From a phage, in assembly GCA_036253055.1 (NCBI GenBank), contig GCA_036253055.1_4124.1: DNA of 64,000 nucleotides. One strand, given 5' to 3'. The notes beneath the pieces were generated by a model. The model ran no database searches and was not told the DNA's origin. It was given only the letters and a program-made list of their open reading frames with translations. Shown in pieces: positions 9,562 to 26,089 of this stretch. Position 1 is the stretch's first letter, and the number at the start of each line of letters is the position of its first letter. The translations under genes were made by a program, and so were the position numbers.

Positions 9562-9564
9562 GTA

Positions 9565-12621: not shown

Positions 12622-12707
12622 TTTGATTCTCCTGTTATTGGGGAGAACCATTTCTCCCCTCTATGTAAAACATTATACGCGTTTAAAAACTAATTGCAAG
12701 TATTATT

Positions 12708-12959: not shown

Positions 12960-13041
12960 TATACTTTCCTCGTTAGGTGTAAGGGGAACGTTTTCCCCTT
13001 CATGTAAACTATTATACAGTACTAAAAACTAATTGCAAGTA

Positions 13042-13188: not shown

Positions 13189-13257
13189 TTCATATTCCTT
13201 AATTAGTGGGGAGAATCATTTCTCCCCTTCATGTAAAACATTATACGCGTTTAAAAA

Positions 13258-13467: not shown

Positions 13468-13472
13468 ATTAA

Positions 13473-13745: not shown

Positions 13746-13796
13746 GGTATAATCCCCAATATAAGCGGCCTAAATCGACCGCTAACGATGTTTTGA

Positions 13797-14066
13797 TTAA
13801 TAGGTGTATGGTTGACGCTCAAACAATGAATAGACGTTATACGCCCCGCTTATGGGCTTCGCTGGTAAATCAATTTTATATTGTTCACGCTTAAAGATAA
13901 TAAAACGGCAATTGTTTTTAACATCAAAATTGATTGAACGTTCCAGGAGTTTACCATCGTGCACAAATACAAGATAACCGCTTGGTACTTGTTTTGTAGA
14001 ACTGGTTGCAACCATAGACCGACGAACATGTGTACCTGCATCGATTAAAGTACTGATATTTTTCAT
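13797..14066 (-). CDS. hypothetical protein
   Basis: 89 aa; SD AGAGGA. Confidence 0.5.
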   Translation of the reverse strand: MKNISTLIDAGTHVRRSMVATSSTKQVPSGYLVFVHDGKLLERSINFDVKNNCRFIIFKREQYKIDLPAKPISGAYNVYSLFERQPYTY

Positions 14067-14146
14067 TTTACTATCCTCTTAAGTTGATTTAATTTCTTTC
14101 TCCTATGCAGACACTATATCAAAGTATCTGCATAAAGTAAAGCTAA

Positions 14147-14470
14147 TTAAAGATCTTTTTTGCGTTTAACATTCTGTACAGTACAATGCAACGGGATATT
14201 AAGATCATTGCACAAACGATAGAGGGAGGTTTCAACAGTATCAAGCCCGTCTACTGATTCCTTTAAGAGTGATACCGCCGTTTGTTGATATGCATCCTCA
14301 TAGCCATAAGTAAATGATTCAACCGCCAGATCATTCAAGCCGTTATCCAGTTCAACGCTTACATGACAAGAATGATAAGTATTGCCATATGAATCAGTCC
14401 AACGTTTACCGTCAACATTGATTGCATGGATTGCAGCCAGGGAAACGGTGTTGATGATAGTTTTAGCCAT
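14147..14470 (-). CDS. hypothetical protein, paralog of 7086..7409
   Basis: WTDSYGNTYHSC..FTYGY motif; SD AAGGAA. Confidence 0.55.
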   Translation of the reverse strand: MAKTIINTVSLAAIHAINVDGKRWTDSYGNTYHSCHVSVELDNGLNDLAVESFTYGYEDAYQQTAVSLLKESVDGLDTVETSLYRLCNDLNIPLHCTVQNVKRKKDL

Positions 14471-14561
14471 TTTAGTATTCCTTAAATTAATATGTGTCGT
14501 CTTGATAAAATCTATTATGCCAGTACTATCAAACTATGTCAATAGTACTGTGATAATATTT

Positions 14562-14774
14562 TTACTTACTTTCTTTCGCTGCTTTATATGTTGCCACTGC
14601 CATAACCACATCAGCACGAACAAAGTTTTTAACCGTGTCACTGTAATAATTGATCGCATCATCTATATCTGCGAACGTCCGATACATACCGCACCAAGAT
14701 ACTTTATAACCTTCTTTCACTTCTACCAGTTTAACGATAGTCTTGTTAACTTTGATTTTAGTAATGATAGCCAT
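14562..14774 (-). CDS. hypothetical protein
   Basis: Start moved to ATG 14772-14774; track N-terminus is translated UTR hairpin. Confidence 0.5.
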   Translation of the reverse strand: MAIITKIKVNKTIVKLVEVKEGYKVSWCGMYRTFADIDDAINYYSDTVKNFVRADVVMAVATYKAAKESK

Positions 14775-14861
14775 TTTAGTTTCCTCATTATCAGGGAGAA
14801 CCATTTCTCCCCTTGATGTAATGTATTATACTTTATTCGATTTACTTTGCAAGTACTTTTT

Positions 14862-15089
14862 TTAATTTAATTCATCCAGGCAAAGGATACGCTCAACGCC
14901 CAAATCAGTTAAACTAATCGACGGCACTTGATAGGTTTCAATGTATGCTACACTTGCCCACTGACCGAACTCATTAACGGCCCAGGTATTCATTGCATTT
15001 TGCAATTCCGCACCTGCCTTGTTAGTAATGACTGCAACTACTTGTTCGTTGCCAGTAGTACCAGATACGCGAGTAATGATAATAGCCAT
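14862..15089 (-). CDS. hypothetical protein
   Basis: Track N-terminus MFYIERGK is translated promoter; start moved to ATG 15087-15089. Confidence 0.5.
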   Translation of the reverse strand: MAIIITRVSGTTGNEQVVAVITNKAGAELQNAMNTWAVNEFGQWASVAYIETYQVPSISLTDLGVERILCLDELN

Positions 15090-15319
15090 TGTTTTGATTC
15101 CTTTGATTTGGAAGGAGAACCGTTTCCCCCTCTCGATGTAAAACATTATACGCTAATCTCTTAATCGTGCAAGTACTTTTTATTACTTTTTGCAAAATAC
15201 TTTAAACGCTCTCAATCGCATTCTAACGACCTTAACGCCACCAGCTAGGGCGATGTATCAGATAATCAGTTTAATGCGTTAGAATCGATTCTAGGCGGTG
15301 CTGGTGGACTGGAATACTA

Positions 15320-15350
15320 CAGACACAAAAAAGCCCACTGTTTAAGGTGG
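15320..15350 (-). terminator. rho-independent terminator after gene 15375..15857
   Basis: Minus strand AGCCCACC-loop-GGTGGGCT followed by TTTTTTGTGT. Confidence 0.6.
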
Positions 15351-15374
15351 GCTAGTGATTCAGTACTTTAATTG

Positions 15375-15857
15375 TTATGCTTCAACTTTGCGATGAGCTT
15401 CGATCCATTCCTCGCGAGTCATACCGCTTTCTTTGATAGCGTCCAGTACTACCGCAATGCAGTTACCGCGTACAGGAATCAAATGTTCTTCCCCGTTATC
15501 AAGGACAACAGTAACACGTTCTTGAATCCATTTTTTAGGCTTAGATTCCGGCTTATCTTCACCGTACTTAACCGCCAGGGCTTTATGTGCCATTTCAATA
15601 ACCACTTCCAGATCTAAACCAGACACCGCCGCCTGAATACTTTCTATTGTTGCTTGCAGTTCTGCTTCACGGGCTTTTTTCTGTTCTTCCAGTTCTGCTA
15701 CCTTTTTGGCTTGTAGTTCTTTCGCTTCACTGTAAGCAATGTTAAAATTGTTGCGTACTGCTTTCATGGTATCATTATCCAGGTCAGCCAGCAATTCAGC
15801 AGCAATCACAGTATCGTTAGAAATCAGTGCTTTCAGAAATGATTTTACATTAGCCAT
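15375..15857 (-). CDS. possible H-NS-like nucleoid-associated protein
   Basis: N-terminal coiled coil (ELQAKKVAELEEQKKAREAELQ); C-terminus IPVRGNCIAVVLDAIKESGMTREEWI loosely resembles the H-NS DNA-binding region; start at ATG 15855-15857 (SD GAGGA). Confidence 0.35.
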   Translation of the reverse strand: MANVKSFLKALISNDTVIAAELLADLDNDTMKAVRNNFNIAYSEAKELQAKKVAELEEQKKAREAELQATIESIQAAVSGLDLEVVIEMAHKALAVKYGEDKPESKPKKWIQERVTVVLDNGEEHLIPVRGNCIAVVLDAIKESGMTREEWIEAHRKVEA

Positions 15858-16049
15858 TTTATAAATCCTCAATTAAAGTTTAAGTTAGTTTATCAAAGTT
15901 TGTTTGACGTGTCCAGTTTTTCATTCGACTTACTGGCGGTCTACTTAATGTTCCCCGTCTTGATGTAATACATTCTACGCTTTTCCCTGGTAATGTCAAC
16001 TACTTTTTTAAAACTATTTTCAAAGTATACCAGTACTACGATACTACAA

Positions 16050-16085
16050 AAACAAAAAAGCCCACTGTATAAGTGGGCTAGTGAT
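16050..16085 (-). terminator. rho-independent terminator after gene 16097..16396
   Basis: Minus strand AGCCCAC-loop-GTGGGCT followed by TTTTTTGTTTTTG. Confidence 0.6.
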
Positions 16086-16096
16086 TCAGTACTATA

Positions 16097-16396
16097 TTAT
16101 AAACAATTAATTACGCCAGTGAATGTAACTTTCTCTGTATCCATTACAGTAACCGAACCGCGTTTACTTTTTGCATCGTAATAGATGGTCGTGCTACCCT
16201 GATCATCTTCTTCATGGTACGGGCCATTAGCAAACATTGCAGGGGCCAGTTCCAGGGATTTGGTAACGATCTCAGCCGTTTCCTCGTTAGTCATTGCAAC
16301 AGTGCACTGAATGAATTTTTCTTTCTGTACATCAACGGAAGCGTTAACAGCGAAAGAGGAAACAGATAAAGCCAGGGCGATGATTGCAGTTTTCAT
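16097..16396 (-). CDS. secreted protein (signal peptide)
   Basis: N-terminus MKTAIIALALSVSSFAVNA; SD AAGGA; terminator downstream at 16050-16085. Confidence 0.55.
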   Translation of the reverse strand: MKTAIIALALSVSSFAVNASVDVQKEKFIQCTVAMTNEETAEIVTKSLELAPAMFANGPYHEEDDQGSTTIYYDAKSKRGSVTVMDTEKVTFTGVINCL

Positions 16397-16506
16397 TTGT
16401 ATATCCTTTGTTAGTACTAGGGAGTATTCCCGATTAGATGTAAAACATTATACGCGTTTAAAAACTATTATCAAGTACTTTAATATAAAAGTATTTGAAA
16501 AAAAGT

Positions 16507-16535
16507 CTTGACAACTGCATCCAGTACTGGCATAA
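16507..16535 (+). promoter_or_regulatory. plus-strand sigma70-like promoter (TTGACA, 17 nt, CATAAT) driving a short non-coding transcript
   Basis: TTGACA 16507-16512, CATAAT 16530-16535; followed by CCCACAGGGTGC motif and hairpin 16610-16640; no ORF. Confidence 0.45.
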
Positions 16536-16641
16536 TATCTACATAAAGACGAGATAGTCACTAACCCACAGGGTGCATAGATCCGTCTATTAAATGATTC
16601 AGTACTGCAAAATAAAGGGGATCGTTTGATCCCCCTGATTA

Positions 16642-16863
16642 TTACTTAGTAAGATATAAACAAAAATCACCTTTCTTTGATACTCCGCAAGTGTAACGCG
16701 ATGAATAGTTAGAAACGTCTTGTACTTCTGCAATGACGAGCGTATCATCATTTAACTCATCGCAAAAACATACTGCGGGATCTTCTACGCCGATATTGTC
16801 GGCATGTTCCCGCATAGATTTAACCAGTGCTTCAAGCTGGGAAAGAGTAGTGATATTAGCCAT
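16642..16863 (-). CDS. hypothetical protein
   Basis: 73 aa; SD TAAGGAG. Confidence 0.55.
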   Translation of the reverse strand: MANITTLSQLEALVKSMREHADNIGVEDPAVCFCDELNDDTLVIAEVQDVSNYSSRYTCGVSKKGDFCLYLTK

Positions 16864-16947
16864 TGTAAAACTCCTTATTAGTGGGGAGAACCATTTCCCC
16901 CTTGATGTAAACTATTATATAGTACTGGAAACTATTTGCAAGTACTT

Positions 16948-17136
16948 TTAATTAAATTCCATAAAATCATTTTCAACGTGCACAACAATCTGATTATTTT
17001 TAAAGGACGCAGAAAACTCTATACAATCATAAACCGCTTTTTCTGTTACCAGACTATGAGCACCAATCGGATTAATTGGGGATTGAATTGTTTCAATCTC
17101 GTTACCCTGCTCATTTACAATTAAAATATTAAACAT
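16948..17136 (-). CDS. hypothetical protein
   Basis: 62 aa; SD AGGAG. Confidence 0.5.
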   Translation of the reverse strand: MFNILIVNEQGNEIETIQSPINPIGAHSLVTEKAVYDCIEFSASFKNNQIVVHVENDFMEFN

Positions 17137-17210
17137 TGTCGTTACTCCTGGATAGTGTTAACTCGATGTAAACAATTATACAGTACTGGAAACTAATTGC
17201 AAGTACTTTT

Positions 17211-17414
17211 TTAATTTAATTGCTTTAAAACAAAATCAAAGACACCACGCACATCATTGATCATCGCCTGGCGGTTAGCAGGTAACGCATCAGGATCGCC
17301 ACTATCCCAGGCATTAATGAAGCCACTTAAATCATGGAATACTTTATTCCGTAACCCGATCAACTGCAATTCTTTTTCTTCAAGCTCTTTGATACGTTCA
17401 ATTAAATCACTCAT
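17211..17414 (-). CDS. hypothetical protein
   Basis: Start moved to ATG 17412-17414 (SD GAGGA). Confidence 0.45.
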   Translation of the reverse strand: MSDLIERIKELEEKELQLIGLRNKVFHDLSGFINAWDSGDPDALPANRQAMINDVRGVFDFVLKQLN

Positions 17415-17431
17415 TAGATAATCCTCAGTAC

Positions 17432-17716
17432 TCAATTGTAAGATCCACATCGTTCGCAGTAGTGTTCATCTTCCTCATCTTCTACCACTTGCCCGATGAA
17501 ATGATCTACTTTCGCTTTCAGGTTATTATAATCGTTTTCTACTTCCTGTAAACGTTCCTGGTAGTATTCCAGGGCTTCAACAAATGCAGCTTCCTCTGAT
17601 TTTGCTTGCATCGATAAATTCATCCCGCGTGTTTCATCATATAGCCAAAAACCATCGGTGCATTCAGTTATAGATAACGTGTTAGTCAGTACTTTACTAT
17701 TAATTACTTTGCTCAT
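17432..17716 (-). CDS. hypothetical protein
   Basis: 94 aa; C-terminal CERCGSY; SD GAGGA. Confidence 0.5.
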   Translation of the reverse strand: MSKVINSKVLTNTLSITECTDGFWLYDETRGMNLSMQAKSEEAAFVEALEYYQERLQEVENDYNNLKAKVDHFIGQVVEDEEDEHYCERCGSYN

Positions 17717-17801
17717 TAGATAATCCTCATTAAAGGCGGGAACTATTCCCGCTCTCGATATAAAGTATTATACGTTAATCTAATTACTTTGCAAGTACTT
17801 T

Positions 17802-18038
17802 TTAGTGCTTTTTATAAAACATCTCAGCGGTGATATTTTTACCCGTTGGTTGTACTTTATCCAGGATCTTTTGGTGTGCACTACGCCCGAAAGAATAAGA
17901 ACCGTAAACCGTTAGCCAGTAGTCGCCATTTTGGTTTACATGTACCGCACAATAAGGAACGCCCCGCGAATCGTCACCAATGAAGTGTGATACTGTACCC
18001 GTTACGTTTGGCGTTGTAGTTTTGATTTGTTCGATCAT
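17802..18038 (-). CDS. hypothetical protein
   Basis: Start moved to ATG 18036-18038 (SD AGGAG); track start lies in the UTR hairpin. Confidence 0.5.
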   Translation of the reverse strand: MIEQIKTTTPNVTGTVSHFIGDDSRGVPYCAVHVNQNGDYWLTVYGSYSFGRSAHQKILDKVQPTGKNITAEMFYKKH

Positions 18039-18096
18039 TTCTCTTACTCCTGGGATATAGGCGGGAACCATTCCCCGCCATTGATTCAGTACTGAA

Positions 18097-18708
18097 TTAA
18101 TATTCGATAGATTCTACTACATCGTCGATAACGTTAAATTGATATTCGTTACCCTCAATCAGTCCTACAATGTTTTCAGTAGTAAACTGGTCTTCATAAG
18201 CATTTTCTAAATCACGGTACAGCTTACAAGATAATTCTCGGATAGTATCAGTCAGTAAGTTTTCCAGATCCTCAGCCAATGCAGCCTGTTTTACAGTTAA
18301 ATCAGTGTAGCGAGTATCAACGCAACCGCCTACCGTGTTTTCGTGAGCGTAGCGTGATTGGGAACGTTCTACACTCATTTCCAAATCATCTTCGTTCAAC
18401 AGGTGACGGATGGAACGATATTTCGTTAACGCCTTAACCTTGCGTAAAAACTTCTCAGCGTCAACGTGGTCAGTACTGATTGATGCACCGTCACCTTGCG
18501 ACCAAAAACCACTGTATTGCAATTCAGCTTCATCTATGCCGTATTCTGGCAGTACTGTTTCTTTATAGTATTCCAGTACTGATTCAGCAAAGAAATTATC
18601 CTCACTTGCACGTTCCCGATCCCGAACCAGTTCGATAGCCGCCGCTTGTTGTTCTGCGTTCAGTTCAGAAAAATCCATAACGAAAGTAGTAGTAGTGATA
18701 GTTTTCAT
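18097..18708 (-). CDS. acidic hypothetical protein
   Basis: 203 aa; acidic; SD GAGGG. Confidence 0.5.
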   Translation of the reverse strand: MKTITTTTFVMDFSELNAEQQAAAIELVRDRERASEDNFFAESVLEYYKETVLPEYGIDEAELQYSGFWSQGDGASISTDHVDAEKFLRKVKALTKYRSIRHLLNEDDLEMSVERSQSRYAHENTVGGCVDTRYTDLTVKQAALAEDLENLLTDTIRELSCKLYRDLENAYEDQFTTENIVGLIEGNEYQFNVIDDVVESIEY

Positions 18709-19007
18709 TTTGTAACCCTCATTCAGTAGTTGATGTAAGTATTATACGCTTTTAAAAACAATTGTCAAACTATTTTATCAGGGGAGTTTTTCGTGTGCCT
18801 TACTCCTGGGCTACTTAACGGGAAGTTACTTATTTCGTTCCCCGTCCTGATGTAAAACATTATACGCCTTTAAACATAGTTTGCAAGTACTTTTTGAAAA
18901 TAGTTTTTATCTCTTTCATATAGATACATTCCCGCACCCTATGGGCTATCGCCTTGTGTCCGGCTTGTAAGTATTATCTCACTAAGCCGGATAACGGTCA
19001 AGTACTT

Positions 19008-19274
19008 TTATTCAAGTACTGCAATCTTTTTAGTACTGTACACAGTAACGCGGTTGCCCTTGCGGTCGTGCTTTATTTCTACCACGCGACGCGATACACT
19101 ATCAGGACGCTTTAAAGCAGATAGCCAGTACTGAATTGATCGGGCTGTACTTTGCTTTACTACGGCCCAACGTTTACCACGTTCAGATTGTACGCCCATA
19201 TCTTTAAACGTTGCCCCGTCCTGGCGTGCTGCAATCCGAGCTAGTTCACGCGTCGCAAAATATGTAATAGTCAT
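19008..19274 (-). CDS. hypothetical protein, paralog of 6591..6986
   Basis: Start moved to ATG 19272-19274 (SD AGGGG); shared FATRELARIAAR and HDRKGNRVTVYS motifs. Confidence 0.5.
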   Translation of the reverse strand: MTITYFATRELARIAARQDGATFKDMGVQSERGKRWAVVKQSTARSIQYWLSALKRPDSVSRRVVEIKHDRKGNRVTVYSTKKIAVLE

Positions 19275-19357
19275 GCTGTTACCCCTATCGTTGATGTACA
19301 AAAAGAACTTTATTATAAAGTACTATCACCGTGCAATAGTACTTTTAATCTATTCTC

Positions 19358-19597
19358 TTACATTCCAACCATCGCCGCACGGATCGCAGTAGTACTATAC
19401 TTAAAGCCGTCCGGTGTTTTATCTTGTCCAGTCTGTTCTAAAAATAGCATCATATGACGGGCCGCATCATTACGATTAGTGTTAGCGGCAATAAAGTCCT
19501 GGGCCAACCGGTATAATGATTCGTCGTTATTAATCCAAAGGCTTACATTCCATTGAGTTTTGTTTTTGTGTCCTAAGAACATTTTTGATTTAGCCAT
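19358..19597 (-). CDS. hypothetical protein
   Basis: Start moved to ATG 19595-19597; track N-terminus is translated promoter. Confidence 0.45.
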   Translation of the reverse strand: MAKSKMFLGHKNKTQWNVSLWINNDESLYRLAQDFIAANTNRNDAARHMMLFLEQTGQDKTPDGFKYSTTAIRAAMVGM

Positions 19598-19691
19598 TTT
19601 TAAATCCTCTTTATTATAGTGGGGAACTATTCCCCACCTGATGTAAAACATTATACGCTTTTAAACTTAGTTTGCAAGTACTTTATTAAAC

Positions 19692-20054
19692 TTATTCGTA
19701 AATCTTGCCACTGTCAGCCCATACCAGGAAACGAGGCATATTATCCCATGCATCTTGTTTTAAGTTTAAGCCGTGTAATACTTCTGTACTTTCCATTCCT
19801 GGTACTGGCTTGCTATACACTGCAAACATTTCGCCCATGTACTGATAAGCCATCGTTAAATCAGTCTGGATCATCTTATGGATCATTGCATCCAGCATTG
19901 CAGTAGCGGCATACTGTTCACGCTTAAGCGGCAGCATTGCAATCAATTCCCGATAAGCTGCAATGTGAATCCGTACAGTCTCAGCGGGAAGATCTTTCAT
20001 CTCTTCACGGAAAGAAACCAGGTTAAGCATGATAGTATTGATTTGAGTCGCCAT
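19692..20054 (-). CDS. hypothetical protein
   Basis: Start moved to ATG 20052-20054; track N-terminus MFYIESGN is translated promoter. Confidence 0.5.
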   Translation of the reverse strand: MATQINTIMLNLVSFREEMKDLPAETVRIHIAAYRELIAMLPLKREQYAATAMLDAMIHKMIQTDLTMAYQYMGEMFAVYSKPVPGMESTEVLHGLNLKQDAWDNMPRFLVWADSGKIYE

Positions 20055-20417
20055 CGTTTTAATCTCTTTTAAAGTGTAGCGGGAAGTGTTCCCGCTCTCG
20101 ATGTAAAACATTCTACACCTTTCCCAATACTTTGCAAGTACTTTCTACAAATACTTTTAAAATAGTTTTCTTTCTATATAGGGGAACTATCTTTCAGTAC
20201 TGCAACCATCCAGGGGAACTATCTTTCTATATAGTAGTACTATGATTCAGTACTGAATCAATCCACCAAATCATCCCGATACCCCGTAAAACGGCCTCAG
20301 ACGCATTCTAACGCATTAATACACCTAAGCTATACATTTGCACCATTCCAATCATTCCAGGGCTTTACAGGCCGTTTAAACGCGTTAAATTATTTTCAAT
20401 TATTTTGTTTTTAGCTA

Positions 20418-20445
20418 TTGACTCAGTACTAAAAAAGCGTATAAT
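20418..20445 (+). promoter_or_regulatory. plus-strand sigma70 consensus promoter (TTGACT, 16 nt, TATAAT) in ORF-free region
   Basis: Perfect -10 TATAAT 20440-20445; no ORF downstream. Confidence 0.45.
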
Positions 20446-20880
20446 TACTACATAGACGCGAGAAAGCGGATACCCCAGGGGGTGGGAAGATCCGTCCAAA
20501 ATTCAAGATATAAAAAAAGGATACACTCCCGCACCCTAGCAGGTTAACGCACTTTCTCAGTACTGAATTATAGTACCATAGTCCGGCCCAGGATGGCAAG
20601 CAAATTAATTAAAACTTTTTTCATCCAGGGTATTGCTTTATTTTTCCAGTACTGTATAATAGTTCCATCAAGTCGAGAAAGACTCAAGCCCACCGGGTGC
20701 ATAGTTACGCCCAAAATTCAGTACTGAAAAAATTTTTAAAAATATCCGTCCAGGCCGTTGACATTGCCCCCAGTTTATAAGATAATGATTCCAGATTCAG
20801 AAAAATCTAACTCCAGATACTGCGGGGAAACTATCCCCACGCGGTAGGGGAACTATTGGAAAAAACAAAATAAAATTTTG

Positions 20881-21030
20881 ATTTAGCCGTCTATACTTCC
20901 AGACGTGTAACCATCTAGCCGTTTAGCCGTCCAAACGTCTAGCAATCCAGCCATCCAGAAATCTAGCCGTTTAGCCGTCTAGATGGATAGCCATCTTTAC
21001 TTCCAGACTTCTGGAGGGCTAGACATATCT
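20881..21030. repeat. iteron-like direct repeats (TAGCCGT units; 17-mer CTAGCCGTTTAGCCGTC twice)
   Basis: TAGCCGT at 20884, 20916, 20924, 20964, 20972; ACTTCCAGAC twice; in ORF-free region. Confidence 0.5.
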
Positions 21031-21701
21031 ACGTCCAAAATCCACCCAGGGTAACTACGCCCAAAATCCGTCAGTACTATACCATAGATCTATCTTTTGA
21101 AAGGGAGTATTCAGTACTGTCATCATAGCCCTCACTATGTTACCCTAGGAGGATGAAGACTATCATGTAGTACTGAATACTGTTAGAGGGAATCCACCAG
21201 CACAAGCTGGTGGCATAATGCTTTAGATTAAAATCAGTACTGACACCATTCTGTTAATATCAGTACTGTTATTACGATTTTCATATGAGGTTCAAAAAGA
21301 TGTACCACCACAGGAGGAACTATCTTTTCTGTACTGTCTCACGACAGGAGGTAGAGTAAATGAATTGTTCGCAGCAACTCATCACCCTATGTAGAACATT
21401 ATACAGTACTGAATCATAATGTCAATAGCTTTCTTTCATTATTCAGTACTGAAATCGTATAATCTGTATCGCTACAAAACTCATTATATCCCACAAATCC
21501 TATATGTCCCAACGTAAATTTCAACTTTCGAAGATCCAACTTTTATTTCATAGGTACTCCAAAATTTTTAGGATCGAGATTTAGGATGGAGTACTAACCA
21601 ACTTTTTGCTGGAGCCTCAAGGGGTAATTGAATTTTACCCCGAAGGGTAAAAGGGTAATTGAAATTAAGGTGAAAGTAATAATTCAGTACTAATCATTGC
21701 G

Positions 21702-21928
21702 TGATTACTTTTGATTACATTTGATGTAATTTGCAAAATGGAAAAGGAGCTTGGAAACTACAAAGTACGGCAGACTTCCTCTGCCTACTTAGTGGCATAT
21801 CAGTACTGCTACGTTCTTGATTAAACGTGAACATTCCTGTACTCTAGTACTCACTACTGATCACTACAGTGATTATAAATGATTACTTAAATGTTTATAT
21901 ATGATTACTTATGACTACCTATGATTAC
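21702..21928. repeat. cluster of TGATTAC direct repeats
   Basis: TGATTAC at about 21702, 21713, 21880, 21902, 21922, plus variant ATGACTAC. Confidence 0.4.
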
Positions 21929-21968
21929 GGGGTTTAGCCTGGGGAGAATCCTAGTGATCGCATTTGTC

Positions 21969-22008
21969 CAGGCTGAATTTTAACATATGCAACATATGTT
22001 AAAGCCTG
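21969..22008. repeat. large imperfect palindrome centred on TTAACATATG-CAA-CATATGTTAA
   Basis: Perfect 10-bp arms 21980-21989 and 21993-22002, flanked by CAGGCT/AGCCTG. Confidence 0.55.
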
Positions 22009-22044
22009 TATAATGCTTCCACTACGGAGCTTCCCCTAGCTATA

Positions 22045-22236
22045 TTACTTCCTATATATAATCATTAAGATATAGTAGTACTGATTATACTGTACATTCT
22101 CTTTAATATTATAAGGGTCTATAGCAATCTCGGTACATCTGTTAAATGCATATCTATTAAATGCCAGTGGAATTATAGATCTAATCCATACTTGTTCATT
22201 TTCTTTTAGTTTACTTATATAGAAGTTTTTATACAT
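22045..22236 (-). CDS. small protein, paralog family B (about 60 aa)
   Basis: 63 aa; C-terminal YYYILMIIYRK. Confidence 0.5.
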   Translation of the reverse strand: MYKNFYISKLKENEQVWIRSIIPLAFNRYAFNRCTEIAIDPYNIKENVQYNQYYYILMIIYRK

Positions 22237-22251
22237 AGTATTCTCTATTAA

Positions 22252-22434
22252 TTAATATGATAGTACTAGTGTTAGTACTGAGCACAATTGTTCTTTGTAG
22301 TTCTTAGGGTATATAGAATCTTTTATGCACTCATTGAAGTGCCATAGGTATAATCTTGGGTCGCATTCTTTATATATTCTTACGGGGACGAATGTTAGTT
22401 TTCTTATATAGAATTCTTTATGTTCTTTATTCAT
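22252..22434 (-). CDS. small protein, paralog family B
   Basis: MNKEHKEFYIRKL N-terminus. Confidence 0.5.
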   Translation of the reverse strand: MNKEHKEFYIRKLTFVPVRIYKECDPRLYLWHFNECIKDSIYPKNYKEQLCSVLTLVLSY

Positions 22435-22439
22435 ATTAG

Positions 22440-22625
22440 TTAGTGTCTGTATATAAGTAATAGTAAGAATACGTACTGCACATCTTCATCTTTAGTATTG
22501 AGTACTGTACGTATTGCGTCATTAAACAAGAATATAGTACTTGGGTCATGAGAATTTAAAGGGGTTCTGGGTACGGCATGTTTGTAGTTCCCTTTAACAA
22601 ATTGTGTGTAGTATTCTCTATGCAT
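22440..22625 (-). CDS. small protein, paralog family B
   Basis: MHREYYTQF...LLLLIYRH. Confidence 0.5.
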   Translation of the reverse strand: MHREYYTQFVKGNYKHAVPRTPLNSHDPSTIFLFNDAIRTVLNTKDEDVQYVFLLLLIYRH

Positions 22626-22626
22626 A

Positions 22627-22812
22627 TTAGTACCTATATATTAGGGCGAGAATGTAGTACAATTCATATGGAATGTAATTTGGGGTGATCGCACACTGTG
22701 TATGGTAAATGAATTGTTCGGTATTTTTCTTATCCTTGATATCTATTGGGATTAGTGGTATAAGCATTTGGGAGTTTAGATCCAGATGGCTTAAGTAGAA
22801 TTCTTTATGCAT
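22627..22812 (-). CDS. small protein, paralog family B
   Basis: MHKEFYLSHL...YYILALIYRY. Confidence 0.5.
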   Translation of the reverse strand: MHKEFYLSHLDLNSQMLIPLIPIDIKDKKNTEQFIYHTQCAITPNYIPYELYYILALIYRY

Positions 22813-22821
22813 ATTGTTCTC

Positions 22822-23010
22822 TTAGAATACGAAAGCTAGGTACAGGGTATGATACAGTACTCGATGGTAGCTGTCAAAATCTAGTATACATGCTTTAGTG
22901 CACATAGTAAAATACACTTTATCATTTTGTGCATTGATACCGCGAGGTTTATCTAATAGATTAGTTCTGAGGTACATTGGGAAATATTTTGTGTAGTATT
23001 CTTTATGCAT
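22822..23010 (-). CDS. small protein, paralog family B
   Basis: Start moved to internal MHKEYY (ATG 23008-23010) to match family length. Confidence 0.45.
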   Translation of the reverse strand: MHKEYYTKYFPMYLRTNLLDKPRGINAQNDKVYFTMCTKACILDFDSYHRVLYHTLYLAFVF

Positions 23011-23011
23011 G

Positions 23012-23194
23012 TTAGTACCTGAATATAAGTAGGATAGTGTTATATAGCTGGTCATAACTACTACTATTTTCTATACTTCGTTCTATGCAGTTATTGAATC
23101 CCAGTACTGCCAAATCGTTATCCAGAGGGACTTTATATCTGGCGTAGTGTTCAAAAATGCTGGGGAGAAATTGTGTGTAGTATTCTTTGTGCAT
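23012..23194 (-). CDS. small protein, paralog family B
   Basis: MHKEYYTQF...ILLIFRY. Confidence 0.5.
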   Translation of the reverse strand: MHKEYYTQFLPSIFEHYARYKVPLDNDLAVLGFNNCIERSIENSSSYDQLYNTILLIFRY

Positions 23195-23195
23195 A

Positions 23196-23381
23196 TTAGT
23201 ACCTATATATTAGTAAAAGGATGTGATACAGTACTCGATTATAGTCTTCAATATATATCGAGGATTTAGTGCACTGAATGAAGTAGTCTTTTTCGTAGTT
23301 TTTTTCTATACCCAATGGTTCTGTTGGTACAAGGTGTTGGAGATACATTGGGAGTTTCTCTATGTAGTATTCTTTATGCAT
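23196..23381 (-). CDS. small protein, paralog family B
   Basis: MHKEYYIEKLPMYLQ...LLLIYRY. Confidence 0.5.
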   Translation of the reverse strand: MHKEYYIEKLPMYLQHLVPTEPLGIEKNYEKDYFIQCTKSSIYIEDYNRVLYHILLLIYRY

Positions 23382-23382
23382 G

Positions 23383-23571
23383 TTAGTACTTAAATGTTAG
23401 GGCGAGGATGTAATACAGTTTATATGTTCTATCCTCATACATTAGGGTGTACTTAGTACATTCCTGGAACATTGTTTTTGCGTCATCTTTTATGCCCAAT
23501 GCAACGTTTGGTATATGGCTCTGTAGATACATTGGGAGTTTCTCTATGTAGTATTCTTTGTGGTTATTCAT
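23383..23571 (-). CDS. small protein, paralog family B
   Basis: MNNHKEYYIEKLPMYLQ...ILALTFKY. Confidence 0.5.
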   Translation of the reverse strand: MNNHKEYYIEKLPMYLQSHIPNVALGIKDDAKTMFQECTKYTLMYEDRTYKLYYILALTFKY

Positions 23572-23572
23572 A

Positions 23573-23755
23573 TTAGTACCTGAATGTTAGCATTACTACG
23601 TAGTACAGCATATATGGATTATCATCGTATATGAGCGTGTACTTAGTACATTGTTGGAACATTATCTTTGCGTGATCTTTTATTCCTATTGGTTCTGTTG
23701 GTATATGGTGCTGGAGATGCATAGGGATTTTATCCCTGTAGTATTCTTTGTGCAT
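23573..23755 (-). CDS. small protein, paralog family B
   Basis: MHKEYYRDKIPMHLQ...VVMLTFRY. Confidence 0.5.
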   Translation of the reverse strand: MHKEYYRDKIPMHLQHHIPTEPIGIKDHAKIMFQQCTKYTLIYDDNPYMLYYVVMLTFRY

Positions 23756-23765
23756 GTTGTTCTCT

Positions 23766-23948
23766 TTAGTACTTATATATTAGGAGTAAAATGTTATAGT
23801 ACTGGTTCATTGCGTCATCATTTTCTATAGCACGTTTTACGCTATTCATGTAGTTAGATCGAGCGGCACGAGTTATGAGAAGAACTTTGTATGCAGCAAA
23901 GTATTTTTGCTGCACGGGTAGTTTAGAGATATAGTATTCTTTATACAT
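23766..23948 (-). CDS. small protein, paralog family B
   Basis: Start moved to internal MYKEYY (ATG 23946-23948). Confidence 0.45.
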   Translation of the reverse strand: MYKEYYISKLPVQQKYFAAYKVLLITRAARSNYMNSVKRAIENDDAMNQYYNILLLIYKY

Positions 23949-24612
23949 AGTTTGTAATATACGTAATGAGGTGATGCATTTTCTTATTAGTACTGATAAT
24001 TTCCTGTACATGTTTTGTCAGATTGTACGCGTTTTTATAGAGTACTGGATTATCGATTACAGTACTGTACATGAATAGTTCTTCTTCCTGTAGTTCTTTG
24101 TGTTCTAGTTCTTTGAGGAAATCTACAATTGATTTAGTTTCTTCTGTACGTTGTGCTTGCCAGAAGTGCATATTCTCGTGTACTTTTTTTGAACCCATAT
24201 TGTATATGCCACCCATTTGGAATTGTGCTGTATTGACATCGTGGGAGGTGTTACAATTCCCGAAGAAGTATGTATTCCCGAAGTATAGCATTAAAGTGCA
24301 CGGGGTATTATCCAACTGCATATGGATGATGAAGGATGCGTTCTTTAGTACCTTTGTGCTCGTATTAGTACTCAATACTTTTAAATCAGTATTATAGATA
24401 TTCATATAATGAACAGCTATATTATTTTTTTTCATATACAAATCAAGGTTCTTTGATACGTTAACACCATTTGTACTGGATTTTTCCTTTTTATTTCGTT
24501 TCTTTAGTACATTCGGGTGATACGTATATGCAGATGTAACTGATTCTGCCTGAATACTATTGAGGTACTTAAAGTGCTTAAGGTATTGTTTGCTGTGTGC
24601 ATTAAGTTTCAT
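23941..24612 (-). CDS. hypothetical protein (223 aa) inside the family-B array
   Basis: ORF track; AT-rich; no motif recognised; overlaps next gene start by 8 nt. Confidence 0.45.
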   Translation of the reverse strand: MKLNAHSKQYLKHFKYLNSIQAESVTSAYTYHPNVLKKRNKKEKSSTNGVNVSKNLDLYMKKNNIAVHYMNIYNTDLKVLSTNTSTKVLKNASFIIHMQLDNTPCTLMLYFGNTYFFGNCNTSHDVNTAQFQMGGIYNMGSKKVHENMHFWQAQRTEETKSIVDFLKELEHKELQEEELFMYSTVIDNPVLYKNAYNLTKHVQEIISTNKKMHHLITYITNYV

Positions 24613-24622
24613 TTGGTTTCCT

Positions 24623-24802
24623 TTATATAGATGCCAGGGCGAGGATTTCCCTGTAGGGATTATCTTGTGTTAGTACAGCATAAATGCAGCTATTGAGATT
24701 AATATTTTTAGTACTTTTTGTTCCTAGGTTGTAGTAATCAACGAAGGTGTCGTACATGAAACGGTCTTTTATGGTTATACGTTCTATATAGAATTGTTGC
24801 AT
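24623..24802 (-). CDS. small protein, paralog family B (59 aa)
   Basis: Not in track (<60 aa); hand-translated MQQFYIERITIKD...YREILALASI; SD AAGGAA. Confidence 0.45.
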   Translation of the reverse strand: MQQFYIERITIKDRFMYDTFVDYYNLGTKSTKNINLNSCIYAVLTQDNPYREILALASI

Positions 24803-24810
24803 AGTATTCC

Positions 24811-24993
24811 TTAAATAGCGATTAGTTTCATTACTTCTCTGTATGTGTACTTTTCGTTTTGTGCATCTCTTGTGACGACATATAGGAAGGTGTGTTTATC
24901 TTTTTTGTTCCCGCAATTGTAGAAAATATTGAACTTATTGAAGTTGAATCTTTCGGCGTGTTGTAGTTTAGTTAAATAGAATTCTATGTTCAT
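24811..24993 (-). CDS. small protein, paralog family B (subfamily 2)
   Basis: MNIEFYLTKL...YTYREVMKLIAI. Confidence 0.5.
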   Translation of the reverse strand: MNIEFYLTKLQHAERFNFNKFNIFYNCGNKKDKHTFLYVVTRDAQNEKYTYREVMKLIAI

Positions 24994-25001
24994 TTTCTTC
25001 C

Positions 25002-25187
25002 TTACATTTCAATAAGTTTAAGTACTGCTCGGTACGTGTACTTAGTTGTTAGTGCTTCTTTAATAGAAATACAGAAGTAATGTTGTTTGTCTCTTATACT
25101 GCCGCGTTTGTAGTACCACACATGGGAGTTGTGACTGTACTTGTCTCTGTCGGATAGTTGTTGGTAGTAGTAGCTTATATGATTCAT
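25002..25187 (-). CDS. small protein, paralog family B (subfamily 2)
   Basis: ...YTYRAVLKLIEM. Confidence 0.5.
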   Translation of the reverse strand: MNHISYYYQQLSDRDKYSHNSHVWYYKRGSIRDKQHYFCISIKEALTTKYTYRAVLKLIEM

Positions 25188-25239
25188 TATAATGTAATTA
25201 GCCTTACTATATTAAAGTACTCGGTCCCTGGTGTACCTT

Positions 25240-25434
25240 TTAGAACTTAAAGATGAGGTTCAGGATAGAGCGGTACTTAGTTGCAGGGAACGTATGTTCT
25301 ATTGCATCACGTGTCTCCATCCTGAAATCGTAATTGTAATATAGATTATTCTTTCTCATAGGTCGTGCTAAAGAGAATGATAGCTGTTCTTGCTTGTGTA
25401 GTTTACTACAATAGAAATCTTTATGATTATTCAT
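25240..25434 (-). CDS. small protein, paralog family B (subfamily 2)
   Basis: MNNHKDFYCSKL... Confidence 0.45.
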   Translation of the reverse strand: MNNHKDFYCSKLHKQEQLSFSLARPMRKNNLYYNYDFRMETRDAIEHTFPATKYRSILNLIFKF

Positions 25435-25636
25435 AGAAATATATTAGTCCTATTAAACCTGAGTACTGAATATTTTTGTTATTGCATTCGATTGCTTCTA
25501 GAGTACTACGTATACAATTATTAAAGCAATCTCTGGCGTGTGGTGTATCTATACTTAAAGGTGATACACTCCTTAGAAACAATTGTTCTTCGTTGCTAAG
25601 GTATTTGGTGTAGAATTCTTTATGTTCAGTATTCAT
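25427..25636 (-). CDS. small protein, paralog family B
   Basis: MNTEHKEFYTKYL... Confidence 0.45.
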   Translation of the reverse strand: MNTEHKEFYTKYLSNEEQLFLRSVSPLSIDTPHARDCFNNCIRSTLEAIECNNKNIQYSGLIGLIYFYE

Positions 25637-25637
25637 A

Positions 25638-25847
25638 TTAGTACTCGATTAATAGTGTTAAGATGAAATAGTACTGCATAGACTCGTTACCTTCAAGGAA
25701 ATTCCTTATGAGGTTATTTCTGACTGAGTTAAGCAGAAGTGCCGAACGTTTTGCATTTGCAAGTATAATTTGTTGATGCTCTATGCTATTCTGTTCACCT
25801 TTTGACAGAGCACATAGGTAGTACTGCATAATTTGTTCTTGGGTCAT
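25638..25847 (-). CDS. small protein, paralog family B (divergent)
   Basis: 69 aa; ...YYFILTLLIEY. Confidence 0.4.
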   Translation of the reverse strand: MTQEQIMQYYLCALSKGEQNSIEHQQIILANAKRSALLLNSVRNNLIRNFLEGNESMQYYFILTLLIEY

Positions 25848-26089
25848 ATAGATGCCAGTACTAAAAGGTTAATGAATCGTTTACTTTCGTCAGGGTTTTG
25901 AAGTCCCTCAAAGATGTCCTCTATAAAGCAATTCAACATAAGTGCATTTGTTGGGGTAGTACTTTTTTTGAGGGTATTGATTGCACAGAATTTTGAGAGG
26001 AAGAATGCGAAGTCTTCTGCGTTCATGTAGCTCATATAGTTCTTAGTACTTTGGCTAAGTGCTTGGTAGTGATCTATTACATTGTTCAT
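25844..26089 (-). CDS. small hypothetical protein (first gene of array)
   Basis: 81 aa; 4-nt overlap with downstream gene. Confidence 0.4.
   Translation of the reverse strand: MNNVIDHYQALSQSTKNYMSYMNAEDFAFFLSKFCAINTLKKSTTPTNALMLNCFIEDIFEGLQNPDESKRFINLLVLASI

Follow-up and report, generated by a model that had tools for sequence, protein, structure and literature searches.

A tandem array of tiny paralogous proteins beside the terminal repeat of an Asteriusvirus genome, with a gene set reshuffled between sister phages

Genes 37-60 of Bacillus phage SPO1 and the pre-early genes of coliphage T5 are host-takeover or early modules located at terminal repeats. Multigene families near genome termini are also found in African swine fever virus (ASFV; i.e., MGF100/110/360/505) and poxviruses (i.e., the host-range families or "gene accordions"), and some of the MGF and poxvirus genes have a demonstrated role in immune evasion. 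The LTR genes of Kayvirus likewise form an early module at terminal repeats, and in phage K the LTR transcripts are seen by 2 min (PMC9241854). In the related phage CBB, short hypothetical ORFs located behind RpoD-like promoters are interpreted as early genes for host takeover, and late structural genes are marked by an ATAAATA-type motif (PMC5259590). Jumbo phages also harbor expanded families, such as the zinc-ribbon family of Bacillus phage G, which has roughly 35 copies proposed to be transcription factors or DNA-binding proteins (PMC7824862), and the lineage-specific RCC1-like family of Asteriusvirus (PMC7247149).

We analyzed a 64,000-nt stretch of DNA (hereafter, the window). As predicted, its source is a phage, namely, an Asteriusvirus jumbo coliphage of the 121Q/G17/PBECO4 group, whose host is E. 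coli. The minus strand at 22045..26089 carries 17 small ORFs in succession and one unrelated 223-aa ORF, as listed here.

26113..26141, minus strand: predicted operon promoter, TTGACA-17 nt-TATAAT, perfect sigma-70 consensus
25844..26089, minus strand: m17, 81 aa, operon gene 1; possible remote family member only
25638..25847, minus strand: m16, 69 aa, subfamily C (..MQYYFILTLLIEY); 4-nt overlap with m17; 13.9 bits
25427..25636, minus strand: m15, 69 aa, subfamily A; phrog_11711 E 1.3e-13; 49.7 bits
25240..25434, minus strand: m14, 64 aa, subfamily A; 8-nt overlap with m15; phrog_11711 E 4.7e-22
25188..25239, minus strand: intergenic gap, 52 nt, the sole sizeable gap of the array
25002..25187, minus strand: m13, 61 aa, subfamily B; leave-one-out 19.5 bits
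24811..24993, minus strand: m12, 60 aa, subfamily B; leave-one-out 14.5 bits
24623..24802, minus strand: m11, 59 aa, subfamily B; 17.1 bits; equals 121Q gene 255
23941..24612, minus strand: p223, 223 aa, separating the B and A blocks; phrog_29152
23766..23948, minus strand: m10, 60 aa, subfamily A; internal ATG; 8-nt overlap with p223; 46.3 bits
23573..23755, minus strand: m09, 60 aa, subfamily A; leave-one-out 55.7 bits
23383..23571, minus strand: m08, 62 aa, subfamily A; extra copy, missing in 121Q and G17
23196..23381, minus strand: m07, 61 aa, subfamily A; phrog_11711 E 1.6e-28; 71.2 bits; structure-prediction member
23012..23194, minus strand: m06, 60 aa, subfamily A; PHROG comparison and leave-one-out HMM
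22822..23010, minus strand: m05, 62 aa, subfamily A; start at internal ATG; leave-one-out HMM
22627..22812, minus strand: m04, 61 aa, subfamily A; leave-one-out HMM
22440..22625, minus strand: m03, 61 aa, subfamily A; leave-one-out HMM
22252..22434, minus strand: m02, 60 aa, subfamily A; PHROG comparison and leave-one-out HMM
22045..22236, minus strand: m01, 63 aa, subfamily A; final operon gene; PHROG comparison and leave-one-out HMM
21769..21789, minus strand: hairpin GGCAGAGGAAGTCTGCC

The 17 small ORFs are all intact, both here and in verified relatives, and no array members were found elsewhere in the 64-kb window. Sixteen encode 59 to 69 aa, and the promoter-proximal m17 encodes 81 aa. 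For the two ORFs with listed lengths of 77 and 81 aa (22822..23055 and 23766..24011), the starts are internal ATGs, which yield 62 aa (m05) and 60 aa (m10) and agree with the 121Q annotation. The 59-aa ORF at 24623..24802, absent from the ORF track, is real, since it is annotated in 121Q and G17. The original prediction described about 18 consecutive paralogs that overlap or are separated by 1 to 10 nt. The tandem array was confirmed, but it comprises 16 demonstrable paralogs in three subfamilies (A, B, and C) and one doubtful member (m17), and the row of small ORFs is interrupted in mid-array by p223. Most spacings fall between -8 and +10 nt, the exceptions being one 15-nt gap and the 52-nt gap.

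Paralogy was evaluated with a leave-one-out HMM test, for which 200 composition-preserving shuffles and 968 other window ORFs served as the background. Sixteen of the 17 ORFs scored 13.9 to 71 bits, while the best background score was ≤12.3 bits; for m16, the values were 13.9 bits versus ≤10.3 bits. These 16 ORFs form one paralogous family whose similarity exceeds chance. Profile-profile comparison linked subfamily A to subfamily B (the YTYREVMKLIAI group; probability, 95%; E, 4e-8) and to subfamily C (the m16 class; probability, 93.6%; E, 2e-7). m17 scored 4.2 bits, which does not place it in the family, and hhalign gave a probability of only 34.5% between the m17/121Q-gene-249 class and subfamily C; m17 is thus a possible remote member. 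In the PHROG comparison, 6 of the 10 queried proteins matched phrog_11711 (E, 1.6e-28 to 1.6e-06), a family without annotation (i.e., of unknown function) that subfamily A members match end to end. Since phrog_11711 does not capture subfamily B, subfamily C, or m17, the membership of B and C derives solely from profile comparison. The PHROG 11711 family is confined to the genus Asteriusvirus, and the expansion of a tiny protein family noted originally is lineage specific.

Across 48 orthogroup representatives, the conserved positions are an invariant Tyr6, Leu10, Phe35-x2-Cys38-[Thr/Ile]39-x3-[Leu/Ile]43, Tyr52, and hydrophobic residues at 55/56/58/59, while variability is high (entropy, >3 bits) in loop 16-34 and on the helix surfaces. 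Core positions are still conserved between deep paralogs that are 25 to 50% identical. Structure prediction for one member, a check suggested with the original prediction, gave a confident small helical domain with a hypervariable loop (AlphaFold on m07, based on a 17-sequence alignment of paralogs; pLDDT, 93; helices 3-7, 12-15, 28-43, and 47-59). The conserved positions follow an i/i+3/i+4/i+7 pattern, and the model supports a buried scaffold with a hypervariable loop and surface. The anticipated pattern of conserved termini and a variable core therefore holds in part: the scaffold is conserved and the loop and surface are hypervariable, but the core retains Phe35, Cys38, and positions 39 and 43. 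Because the alignment shows these positions to be genuine rather than AT-rich codon bias, and because none of the relatives carries one long gene at this location, neither of these simpler accounts explains the array. The proteins have no transmembrane segment (maximum 19-residue hydropathy, 1.02), and their pI values range from 5.1 to 9.6, about half of them being basic (8.8 to 9.6). We found no relatives of the family in Pfam, PADLOC, or PDB, no structural match to the m07 model, and no sequence or fold likeness to known anti-defense, anti-sigma, or host-shutoff proteins.

p223 belongs to phrog_29152 (function unknown). It occupies the same position between the B and A blocks in all genomes and metagenomic contigs examined, is closely spaced with its neighbors (a 10-nt gap upstream and the 8-nt overlap with m10 downstream), and covaries with the array (40% identity in JNE01, versus 86 to 96% for the flanks). 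These features would suit a p223 effector directed or regulated by the paralogs, the small proteins being its interchangeable specificity/adaptor subunits or inhibitors. We consider this arrangement quite unlikely, as p223 has no Pfam or PADLOC match, no recognizable domain, and no usable AlphaFold model (pLDDT, 38), its codivergence may reflect only a location inside a replaced island (see below), and nothing ties one p223 to 16 partners.

The array is predicted to be a single operon behind the perfect sigma-70 promoter, which is followed by AAGGAG 7 nt 5' of the first ATG. The -35 box, 17-nt spacing, and AAGGAG are kept in 12 Asteriusvirus genomes, in which the -10 box is mostly TACTAT. The window contains 16 perfect sigma-70 sites (0.11 expected), 12 of which lie within the terminal-repeat region rich in small genes. 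Judging from the promoter sequence alone, the operon is probably early. At the gene junctions, a C-terminal Arg/Lys-Tyr-stop (AGG/AAG TAC TAA) encodes a Shine-Dalgarno-like AGGTAC ahead of the next gene. With one gene counted per orthogroup, penultimate Arg/Lys codons were AGG/AAG in 21 cases and others in 2, against an internal ratio of 58 to 277 (odds ratio, 50; Fisher p = 3e-13), and the gap after such genes is mostly 1 to 4 nt. Translational coupling of the array genes in vivo would be consistent with this arrangement. The C-terminal motif that was thought to be conserved is indeed present, but part of its conservation is a nucleotide-level constraint and not a protein-function signal, because it embeds a ribosome-binding site.

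The array lies outside a 20.7-kb direct terminal repeat (DTR), 256 bp from its boundary; the physical right genome end of G17 (DTR, 20,668 bp) maps to window position 21,789. In fEgEco12 (DTR, 20,993 bp), the boundary is 303 bp from the array. Like the SPO1, T5, Kayvirus, and CBB modules, the array is located at the genome end that bears the terminal repeat and comprises numerous tiny genes without a known function that have strong host-type promoters and ribosome-binding sites. However, the genes of those modules are mostly unrelated, usually lie within the repeat, and often have a promoter each, whereas the array is one paralogous family of 16 to 17 copies in a single predicted operon outside the repeat. 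No sequence or fold likeness to proteins of those modules was found.

An adjoining tandem array of about 11 to 12 RCC1-like paralogs lies on the opposite strand (i.e., divergent) in all genomes. Its genes have a different motif without a -35 box (TTAAATATAGTATAAT) and are preceded by terminators. Two RCC1-like proteins of phAPEC6, gp549 and gp551, are part of the virion (PMC7247149), and both of the directly adjoining arrays vary between sister phages (also according to the fEgEco12 paper), so the small proteins could conceivably be assembly chaperones or partners of these virion proteins. This is very improbable: the arrays are on opposite strands behind dissimilar promoter motifs (sigma-70 consensus versus a -35-less motif), no array members occur in the phAPEC6 virion proteome (PMC7247149), and the alleles are uncoupled, in that the RCC1a of the window shares 96% identity with that of JNE01, a phage with a replaced array, and about 30% with that of 121Q, a phage whose array is 98 to 100% identical. 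As in the phage G zinc-ribbon and RCC1-like families, one small domain has given rise to tens of copies of conjectural function. Unlike those families, the array has a predicted all-helical fold without a metal-binding motif, and its copies lie strictly in tandem within a single predicted operon, with cassette exchange.

The array was present in every genome examined, and in the comparison of related phages suggested with the original prediction, copy number and content vary: 14 genomes have 14 to 22 members each, from >45 orthogroups. At the 52-nt gap, one additional member (orthogroup x05) is present in G17, phAPEC6, and others. 121Q gene 259 is a chimera in which a w08 5' part meets a w07 3' part within an identical segment of 35 bp, a footprint that attributes one copy-number difference (m08 versus 121Q) to unequal crossover in this 5' segment. 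TRF detected a 190-bp period (2.3 copies) at 23323..23752. Compared with JNE01, 21,985..25,623 is essentially unalignable, while the flanks have 86 to 91% nucleotide identity; member proteins in this stretch are 26 to 59% identical, and flanking proteins are 86 to 96% identical. The alignment thus delineates a hypervariable, sharp-edged replaced island. m16 is 90% identical to JNE01, and m17, absent from 121Q and G17, is 78 to 81% identical to JNE01/Turkey5 (i.e., an allele of that type). Several members are 98 to 100% identical across phages.

Diversifying selection, as originally proposed, was not borne out, because dN/dS was <1 throughout (0.27 pooled within orthogroups; 0.28 to 0.62 for the youngest paralogs, with dS already 0.7 to 1.6); no gene-wide positive selection was found within orthogroups or between the youngest paralogs. 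The copy number, free to vary from 14 to 22, and the lack of a known function would fit evolutionary debris, i.e., neutral small-ORF duplications without individual function kept by hitchhiking. We disfavor this account as scarcely credible, given the intact ORFs, the low dN/dS within orthogroups, the core conserved despite paralog divergence, and the maintained start sites, ribosome-binding sites, and promoter. Purifying selection, the occurrence of the array in all Asteriusvirus genomes, and the near-identical members would also suit a service to the phage's own program, as small transcription/replication regulators or nucleoid/DNA-organizing factors; jumbo phages expand small regulator families (PMC7824862), and about half of the members are basic. 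Such a role is nevertheless unlikely. No helix-turn-helix, zinc-ribbon, or other nucleic acid-binding signatures were found in the array proteins, the spread of pI values indicates no uniform DNA-binding character, and it is unusual for core regulators to be replaced wholesale, as the set is between JNE01-type and 121Q-type phages, whose flanks are 86 to 91% identical.

We tentatively favor the view that the array is an early family evolving by birth and death, whose soluble scaffold proteins are putative binders of host or defense targets. Host sigma-70 RNA polymerase would initiate at the consensus promoter (26141..26113) and transcribe leftward across the 17 small genes and the 223-aa gene, ending near the terminal-repeat boundary. 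Translational coupling, with the upstream AGG/AAG TAC TAA supplying AGGTAC for the next ATG at 1- to 4-nt gaps, would mean that the array proteins are made together. Each product would be a soluble helical mini-domain of ~60 residues that keeps its hydrophobic core and differs from its paralogs in the loop and exposed helix faces. Unequal homologous recombination via conserved 5' and 3' gene ends would add, delete, and swap whole cassettes (i.e., birth and death), and every retained paralog would be under purifying selection and therefore not redundant.

The ASFV MGF and poxvirus families offer a parallel, since they too are tandem paralogs adjoining terminal repeats, with copy number and content varied among isolates by recombination between paralogs and with individual members under purifying selection; they differ in virus realm and host, in having unrelated proteins, and in unit size, which is much smaller here (60 aa). 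New here are the operon promoter and its position relative to the boundary, the embedded AGGTAC, the copy-number survey, the crossover footprint, and the JNE01 island. The presence of the array in every genome and its 98 to 100% conserved members are equally compatible with a phage housekeeping role and with a role in an arms race. Since sister phages carry reshuffled versions of the gene set, the array most likely supplies a variable kit of early, host-directed proteins. Its products may bind and neutralize different host proteins or defense components soon after DNA entry, as a host-takeover or counter-defense kit whose composition would vary by phage.

The region of the window spanning the array (22,000..26,200) matched 36 phage records in a megablast search, every one of them a jumbo phage of E. 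coli or Salmonella from the 121Q/PBECO4/G17 group (genus Asteriusvirus); G17, Sharanji, and 121Q exhibited 97% identity across query bases 1/45 to 3681 (~87% of the query). The counterpart of the array in 121Q consists of genes 249 to 265, each annotated as a "hypothetical protein"; beyond them, on the opposite strand, come successive RCC1-like genes labeled "putative DNA condensation." The tandem array of the original prediction is real: 17 consecutive small ORFs (m01 to m17) and one ORF of 223 aa (p223) occupy this stretch of the minus strand.

Features of the array and its surroundings (window coordinates)
20140..22045, ORF-poor stretch of ~1.9 kb between the last gene of the terminal repeat and the array, with no credible ORF
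21425..21398, perfect sigma-70 promoter inside the ORF-poor stretch
21,789, position of the last base of G17, at hairpin GGCAGAGGAAGTCTGCC, from the alignment to G17
22045..26089, minus strand, array of small ORFs, from m17 (first gene, 25844..26089) to m01 (last gene, 22045..22236)
23941..24612, minus strand, p223, a 223-aa ORF between the blocks of subfamilies B and A
26113..26141, minus strand, operon promoter upstream of m17, TTGACA-17 nt-TATAAT, 12/12 match to the sigma-70 consensus
26191..39155, plus strand, 11 to 12 RCC1-like (beta-propeller) paralogs in tandem

All 17 small ORFs could be aligned over their full length, with Tyr6 invariant and Leu57 near-invariant. In a leave-one-out test, an HMM built from 16 ORFs was used to score the 17th, and the controls were that sequence shuffled 200 times and 968 stop-to-stop ORFs from elsewhere in the window. 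Sixteen of the 17 ORFs scored 13.9 to 71 bits, while the control maximum never exceeded 12.3 bits; the promoter-proximal m17 (81 aa) failed, with 4.2 bits. Profile-profile comparisons (one representative per orthogroup from 14 genomes) connected subfamily A (m01 to m10, m14, and m15) over the whole length with both subfamily B (m11 to m13; probability, 95%; E = 4e-8) and subfamily C (m16; probability, 93.6%; E = 2e-7), and the first-gene class (m17 and 121Q gene 249) matched subfamily C with a probability of just 34.5%. The predicted count of about 18 paralogs comes down to 16 (12 in A, three in B, and one in C), with m17 only a possible remote member and p223 unrelated. The listed sizes need correction for two ORFs (given as 77 and 81 aa), whose starts are internal ATGs that yield the family N-terminus and agree with the 121Q annotation. 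The family HMM detected no further member on either strand of the 64 kb.

Two simpler explanations were rejected. Similarity due to AT-rich composition alone is excluded by the shuffle and background-ORF controls, and a single long gene or polyprotein is excluded by the related phages, all of which have separate small genes in mixed reading frames. A DNA-level tandem repeat is not the primary feature either, as TRF picked up only the m07-m09 stretch.

The PHROG profile phrog_11711 (62 positions; no functional annotation) was matched over its full length by m07, m06, m01, m15, m14, and m02 (E = 1.6e-28 to 1.6e-06), and m12, m16, and m17 had no match to it at an E value of ≤0.01. As judged from these profile searches, subfamily A matches phrog_11711 from end to end, and B, C, and m17 lie outside it. 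A Pfam scan of 8 of the 17 small ORFs and p223 returned nothing at or near threshold, including HTH and other domains, and the best hit of a PDB sequence profile search (E = 0.027) was a designed repeat protein, which is no relative. PADLOC models of defense systems revealed nothing relevant to the array proteins, and neither similarity to known anti-defense proteins nor an aca-like HTH regulator was detected; the array is not recognizable by similarity as an anti-CRISPR-type anti-defense locus (Pfam on the 8 of 17 small ORFs and p223; PADLOC).

The family is confined to one lineage. Among 5.8 billion protein clusters, word-indexed searching matched 44 proteins; HMMER, run exhaustively on 1.84 billion representatives, recovered 33 clusters only (each 41 to 81 aa), and tblastn located the family in 36 phage records, Asteriusvirus without exception. 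No megablast match was obtained in 5,426 complete E. coli genomes. Metagenomic contigs with divergent members keep the layout (i.e., RCC1-like genes, an array with a central gene of 221 to 222 aa, a ~2-kb gap, and small genes). A homologue search with p223 found Asteriusvirus-type proteins only, and its AlphaFold model (22 homologues) had a pLDDT of 38.

The array is organized as an operon. Its promoter is followed by AAGGAG, 7 nt ahead of the m17 ATG. Perfect sigma-70 sites number 16 in the window, compared with 0.11 expected, and 12 of them fall within 3.7 to 21.4 kb. In 12 genomes, the sequence ahead of the first array gene preserves the −35 box, the 17-nt spacer, and AAGGAG; the −10 box there is mostly TACTAT (TACAAT in JNE01 and TAGAAT in Turkey5). 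Spacings within the operon range from −8 to +15 nt except for one 52-nt gap, and it is precisely at this position that G17, phAPEC6, and others carry an extra array member.

The gene ends also carry a translational signature. Many members end with Arg/Lys-Tyr-stop, encoded by AGG/AAG TAC TAA and followed after 1 nt by the next ATG, an arrangement that puts AGGT 6 nt ahead of the next start codon. The bias of the penultimate codon is clear: with one gene counted per orthogroup (49 genes), penultimate Arg/Lys codons were AGG/AAG in 21 cases and other codons in 2, versus 58 and 277, respectively, at internal positions (odds ratio, 50; Fisher p = 3e-13). After an xAG/xGG penultimate codon, the gap to the next gene is mostly 1 to 4 nt; other endings are associated with an overlap with the next gene or a gap of 5 to 19 nt, and the window spacers after m11 to m13 (8 to 10 nt) hold TAAGGAA-type ribosome-binding sites. 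We infer from these patterns that the biased C-terminal codons serve as a putative ribosome-binding site for the next gene, and the conserved C-terminus would partly reflect this signal.

The neighboring RCC1-like genes carry different upstream signals. Ahead of most of them come a GCCAGTAC..GTACTGGC hairpin with a T run, resembling a terminator, and then a conserved TTAAATATAGTATAATGAATAAAGGAGG, with no −35 box. In the related phage CBB, RpoD-like promoters were given to short, presumed early host-takeover genes and an ATAAATA-type motif to late structural genes (PMC5259590). The virion proteome of phAPEC6 contains the RCC1-like proteins gp549 and gp551, and none of the array products gp540c to gp548c was detected in it (PMC7247149). 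A search by locus tag of the JP4 virion-proteome supplement gave no hit. The promoter classes, the CBB assignment, and the phAPEC6 proteome together suggest that the array is transcribed early by the host polymerase and the RCC1-like genes late. One alternative is that the family members are chaperones of the adjacent RCC1-like proteins. From phage to phage, the RCC1-like alleles form a pronounced mosaic; the first gene, for example, is 96 to 99% identical to those of G17, E9.1, and JNE01 and ~30% identical to those of 121Q, phAPEC6, and fEgEco12. The two gene sets lie on different strands under different promoter classes and their allele patterns are uncoupled, revealing neither co-regulation nor co-variation, and we therefore regard the chaperone role as the least likely of the alternatives considered.

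An AlphaFold2 model of m07, for which the 17 paralogs served as the alignment, had a pLDDT of 93 and a pTM of 0.76 and consists of two short N-terminal helices (residues 3 to 7 and 12 to 15), a loop, and two long helices (28 to 43 and 47 to 59). Among 48 orthogroup representatives, low entropy was observed at positions 5, 6, 10, 15, 35, 38, 39, 43, 52, 55, 56, 58, and 59. Those in the long helices are spaced i/i+3/i+4/i+7, which indicates one buried face. Entropy of >3 bits and indels occurred at positions 16 to 34 and at all other helix positions. None of the 17 ORFs contains a transmembrane-grade stretch (maximum mean Kyte-Doolittle value over 19 residues, ≤1.02), which eliminates membrane, holin, or superinfection-exclusion peptides as candidates; the hydrophobic C-terminal stretch spans only ~10 residues and was modeled as a packed helix. 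The pI values lie between 5.1 and 9.6, and ~10 to 21% of the residues in each protein are aromatic. The helix model, the entropy pattern, and the hydropathy thus predict small soluble domains in which the core is constant and the surface varies.

A census of the array (family HMM over 14 genomes, with matches clustered at 75% identity) yielded >45 orthogroups and copy numbers from 14 (Salmonella phage SD-15) to 21 or 22 (BF17 and the unverified CMSTMSU record). Whole genes are inserted, deleted, or replaced from genome to genome, and the gene order is otherwise collinear. For the window, this census gives 17 members, of which m08 occurs otherwise in TH47 only and m16 and m17 in JNE01 and Turkey5 only. 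One junction retains a trace of the exchange process: in 121Q gene 259, the first codons and their upstream context are those of m08, the next 35 bp are identical in m07 and m08, and the remainder is m07. Its structure identifies it as the product or reciprocal of an unequal crossover gaining or losing one 189-bp unit. Nucleotide identity to JNE01 is 86 to 89% at 18,095..21,985 and 91% at 25,623..28,627, and between 21,985 and 25,623 (exactly m01 to m15 and p223) just two stubs of ~72% identity were alignable. Proteins inside this island are 26 to 59% identical to those of JNE01 (p223, 40%), versus 86 to 96% for flanking proteins. By these alignments, the window array is a mosaic, with a JNE01-type promoter-proximal end and the rest of the 121Q/G17 type.

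The diversifying selection put forward in the original prediction was not borne out. Nei-Gojobori dN/dS in 37 orthogroups was 0.27 when pooled (pS, 0.093; pN, 0.026), and with few alleles, no positive selection on codons was demonstrable; the few values of >1 each came from <8 substitutions. The youngest paralogs gave dN/dS values of 0.28 to 0.62 at dS values near saturation (0.7 to 1.6). These results indicate that the array genes are real and individually constrained, and the diversity stems mainly from cassette turnover and old divergence. CMSTMSU (MH494197) and TH47 (MT446416) were excluded from the selection analysis. Several array members look frameshifted or truncated in these two records, for which sequencing error is likelier than pseudogenes since both are UNVERIFIED in GenBank.

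The array lies next to the terminal repeat. The G17 record begins and ends with copies of one sequence at an offset of 350,149, which gives the direct terminal repeat a length of 20,668 bp; the G17 paper gives ~20 kb and the Sharanji report 20,668 bp. The repeat start maps near window position 1,619 and the G17 end to 21,789, so that the array, which begins at 22,045, is located in the unique region 256 bp past the repeat. In fEgEco12, the last array gene is separated by 303 bp from the start of the repeat, which has an experimentally supported length of 20,993 bp. Every gene from 1 to 26,089 is oriented leftward. The palindrome (T)CAGTACTG(A) occurs at least 15 times in the ORF-poor stretch at the boundary, which is dense in TCAGTACTGA palindromes and short direct repeats and includes GGACGGCTAAACGGCTAGA-type direct repeats with a 24-bp period at 20913..20983. 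Neither tRNA genes (whole window) nor Rfam families (19,500..26,500) were detected. We consider this stretch a candidate region for the control of packaging, cleavage, or replication.

Within the repeat region, ~28 copies of TATAATGTTTTACATC (2495..21403, minus strand) precede nearly all of the small genes, and many copies combine a perfect TTGACA with an AGTACTG spacer element; with ≤3 mismatches, the window holds 33 matches versus 3.2 expected. This motif, which generates spurious "MFYIE.." ORF starts and plus-strand "..DVKHYT.." ORFs, appears to represent a family of repeated early promoters in which the transcribed start is conserved. The array promoter lacks the downstream element of this family. 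Three perfect TTGACA-N16-TATAAT promoters with the CAGTACTG spacer element lie outside the repeat (48707..48734, 59293..59320, and 63603..63630, minus strand). Among ten terminal-repeat proteins, Pfam and PHROGs provided functional hints only for a GNAT acetyltransferase (118 aa; 9565..9921, minus strand; Pfam E = 5.6e-10) and a 213-aa protein (5362..6003, minus strand) with a protein-kinase match below the gathering score (E = 0.002 to 0.003). A second tandem array, running off the window start (65..1551, minus strand), comprises seven paralogs of 66 to 75 aa with ATGA-type overlaps and an LGTNYQExYV motif; it was rejected as a relative of the present family (hhalign probability, 0.4%). Its G17 version has 15 consecutive genes (G17_00599 to G17_00613) ending ~100 bp ahead of the right repeat copy, and the repeat is thus flanked by small-paralog arrays on both sides. 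All-against-all BLASTP of the window ORFs also revealed adjacent paralogous pairs at 49726..50415 (113/112 aa) and 52559..54699 (503/127 aa), both on the minus strand. The GC skew flips from negative to positive near 22 kb and back near 40 kb. The latter flip coincides with the coding-strand change at ~39.2 kb; the former lies ~4 kb ahead of the strand change at 26.1 kb, leaving the minus-strand array in positive skew.

Tentatively, and with slightly less than even confidence, we read the array as an early, translationally coupled operon of soluble scaffold proteins evolving by birth and death, whose variable surfaces would most plausibly bind host or defense targets. The members could instead be partners of p223, which sits within the array and diverges with it in the island, or phage-internal regulators. 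Extending the target-binding reading, the array may be a natural phage mini-binder library on one 60-residue helical scaffold, diversified by conserved-end cassette exchange, with each cassette neutralizing a different host factor or defense system; we regard this extension as rather doubtful. In such a library, the conserved gene ends would double as translation-coupling signals and recombination joints, and the second array on the other repeat flank would mean that one kit enters behind the repeat whichever DNA end leads.

The array would work in a way similar to two known systems. The repeat-end host-takeover modules of the SPO1, T5, and Kayvirus type are transcribed within minutes, and their products shut off or redirect host functions. 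The array resembles them in its strong host-type promoter (TTGACA-17-TATAAT) with AAGGAG; however, it lies outside the direct terminal repeat that contains their genes and is a single paralogous family without a sequence or fold relative, and it is not a member of those families. The multigene families of African swine fever virus (MGF) and poxviruses, some members of which have a role in host range or immune evasion, are likewise tandem paralogs by terminal repeats that are gained, lost, and replaced from isolate to isolate through recombination. This likeness is an analogy in mode of working and not one of membership; if the mini-binder library is true, the array would be the bacteriophage counterpart of these families. 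We place the array with the lineage-specific expansions of large phages and with their early modules of small genes.

Among the papers found to mention Asteriusvirus, none was a transcriptome or functional study of such a phage and no title points to the array, and the array is not described in the papers examined on Asteriusvirus, CBB, or jumbo-phage comparative genomics. Its genes are already known as deposited hypothetical proteins grouped in a PHROG; what is new is the definition of a family with three subfamilies, the anatomy of the operon and its promoter, the putative ribosome-binding site embedded in the gene ends, the repeat-boundary position, the crossover footprint, and the sharp-edged island.

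Asteriusvirus jumbo phages are therapy candidates under characterization, and >80% of their genes have no assigned function. Being compact and sharply delimited, the locus is an experimentally tractable block of this jumbo-phage dark matter. It offers, behind a single strong promoter, sixteen proteins of 60 residues that are predicted to be soluble and whose fold is predicted with confidence, and the cassettes that can be gained, lost, or swapped are already evident from natural variation. Whatever the function, a putative Shine-Dalgarno sequence in the last two sense codons provides a clean example of dual coding that can mislead motif-based inference on protein termini. If the members are target-specific inhibitors, they would supply a wealth of new small modulators acting on E. 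coli proteins or defense systems as well as a natural scaffold for binder engineering, and terminal multigene families would be common to the large DNA viruses of bacteria and eukaryotes.
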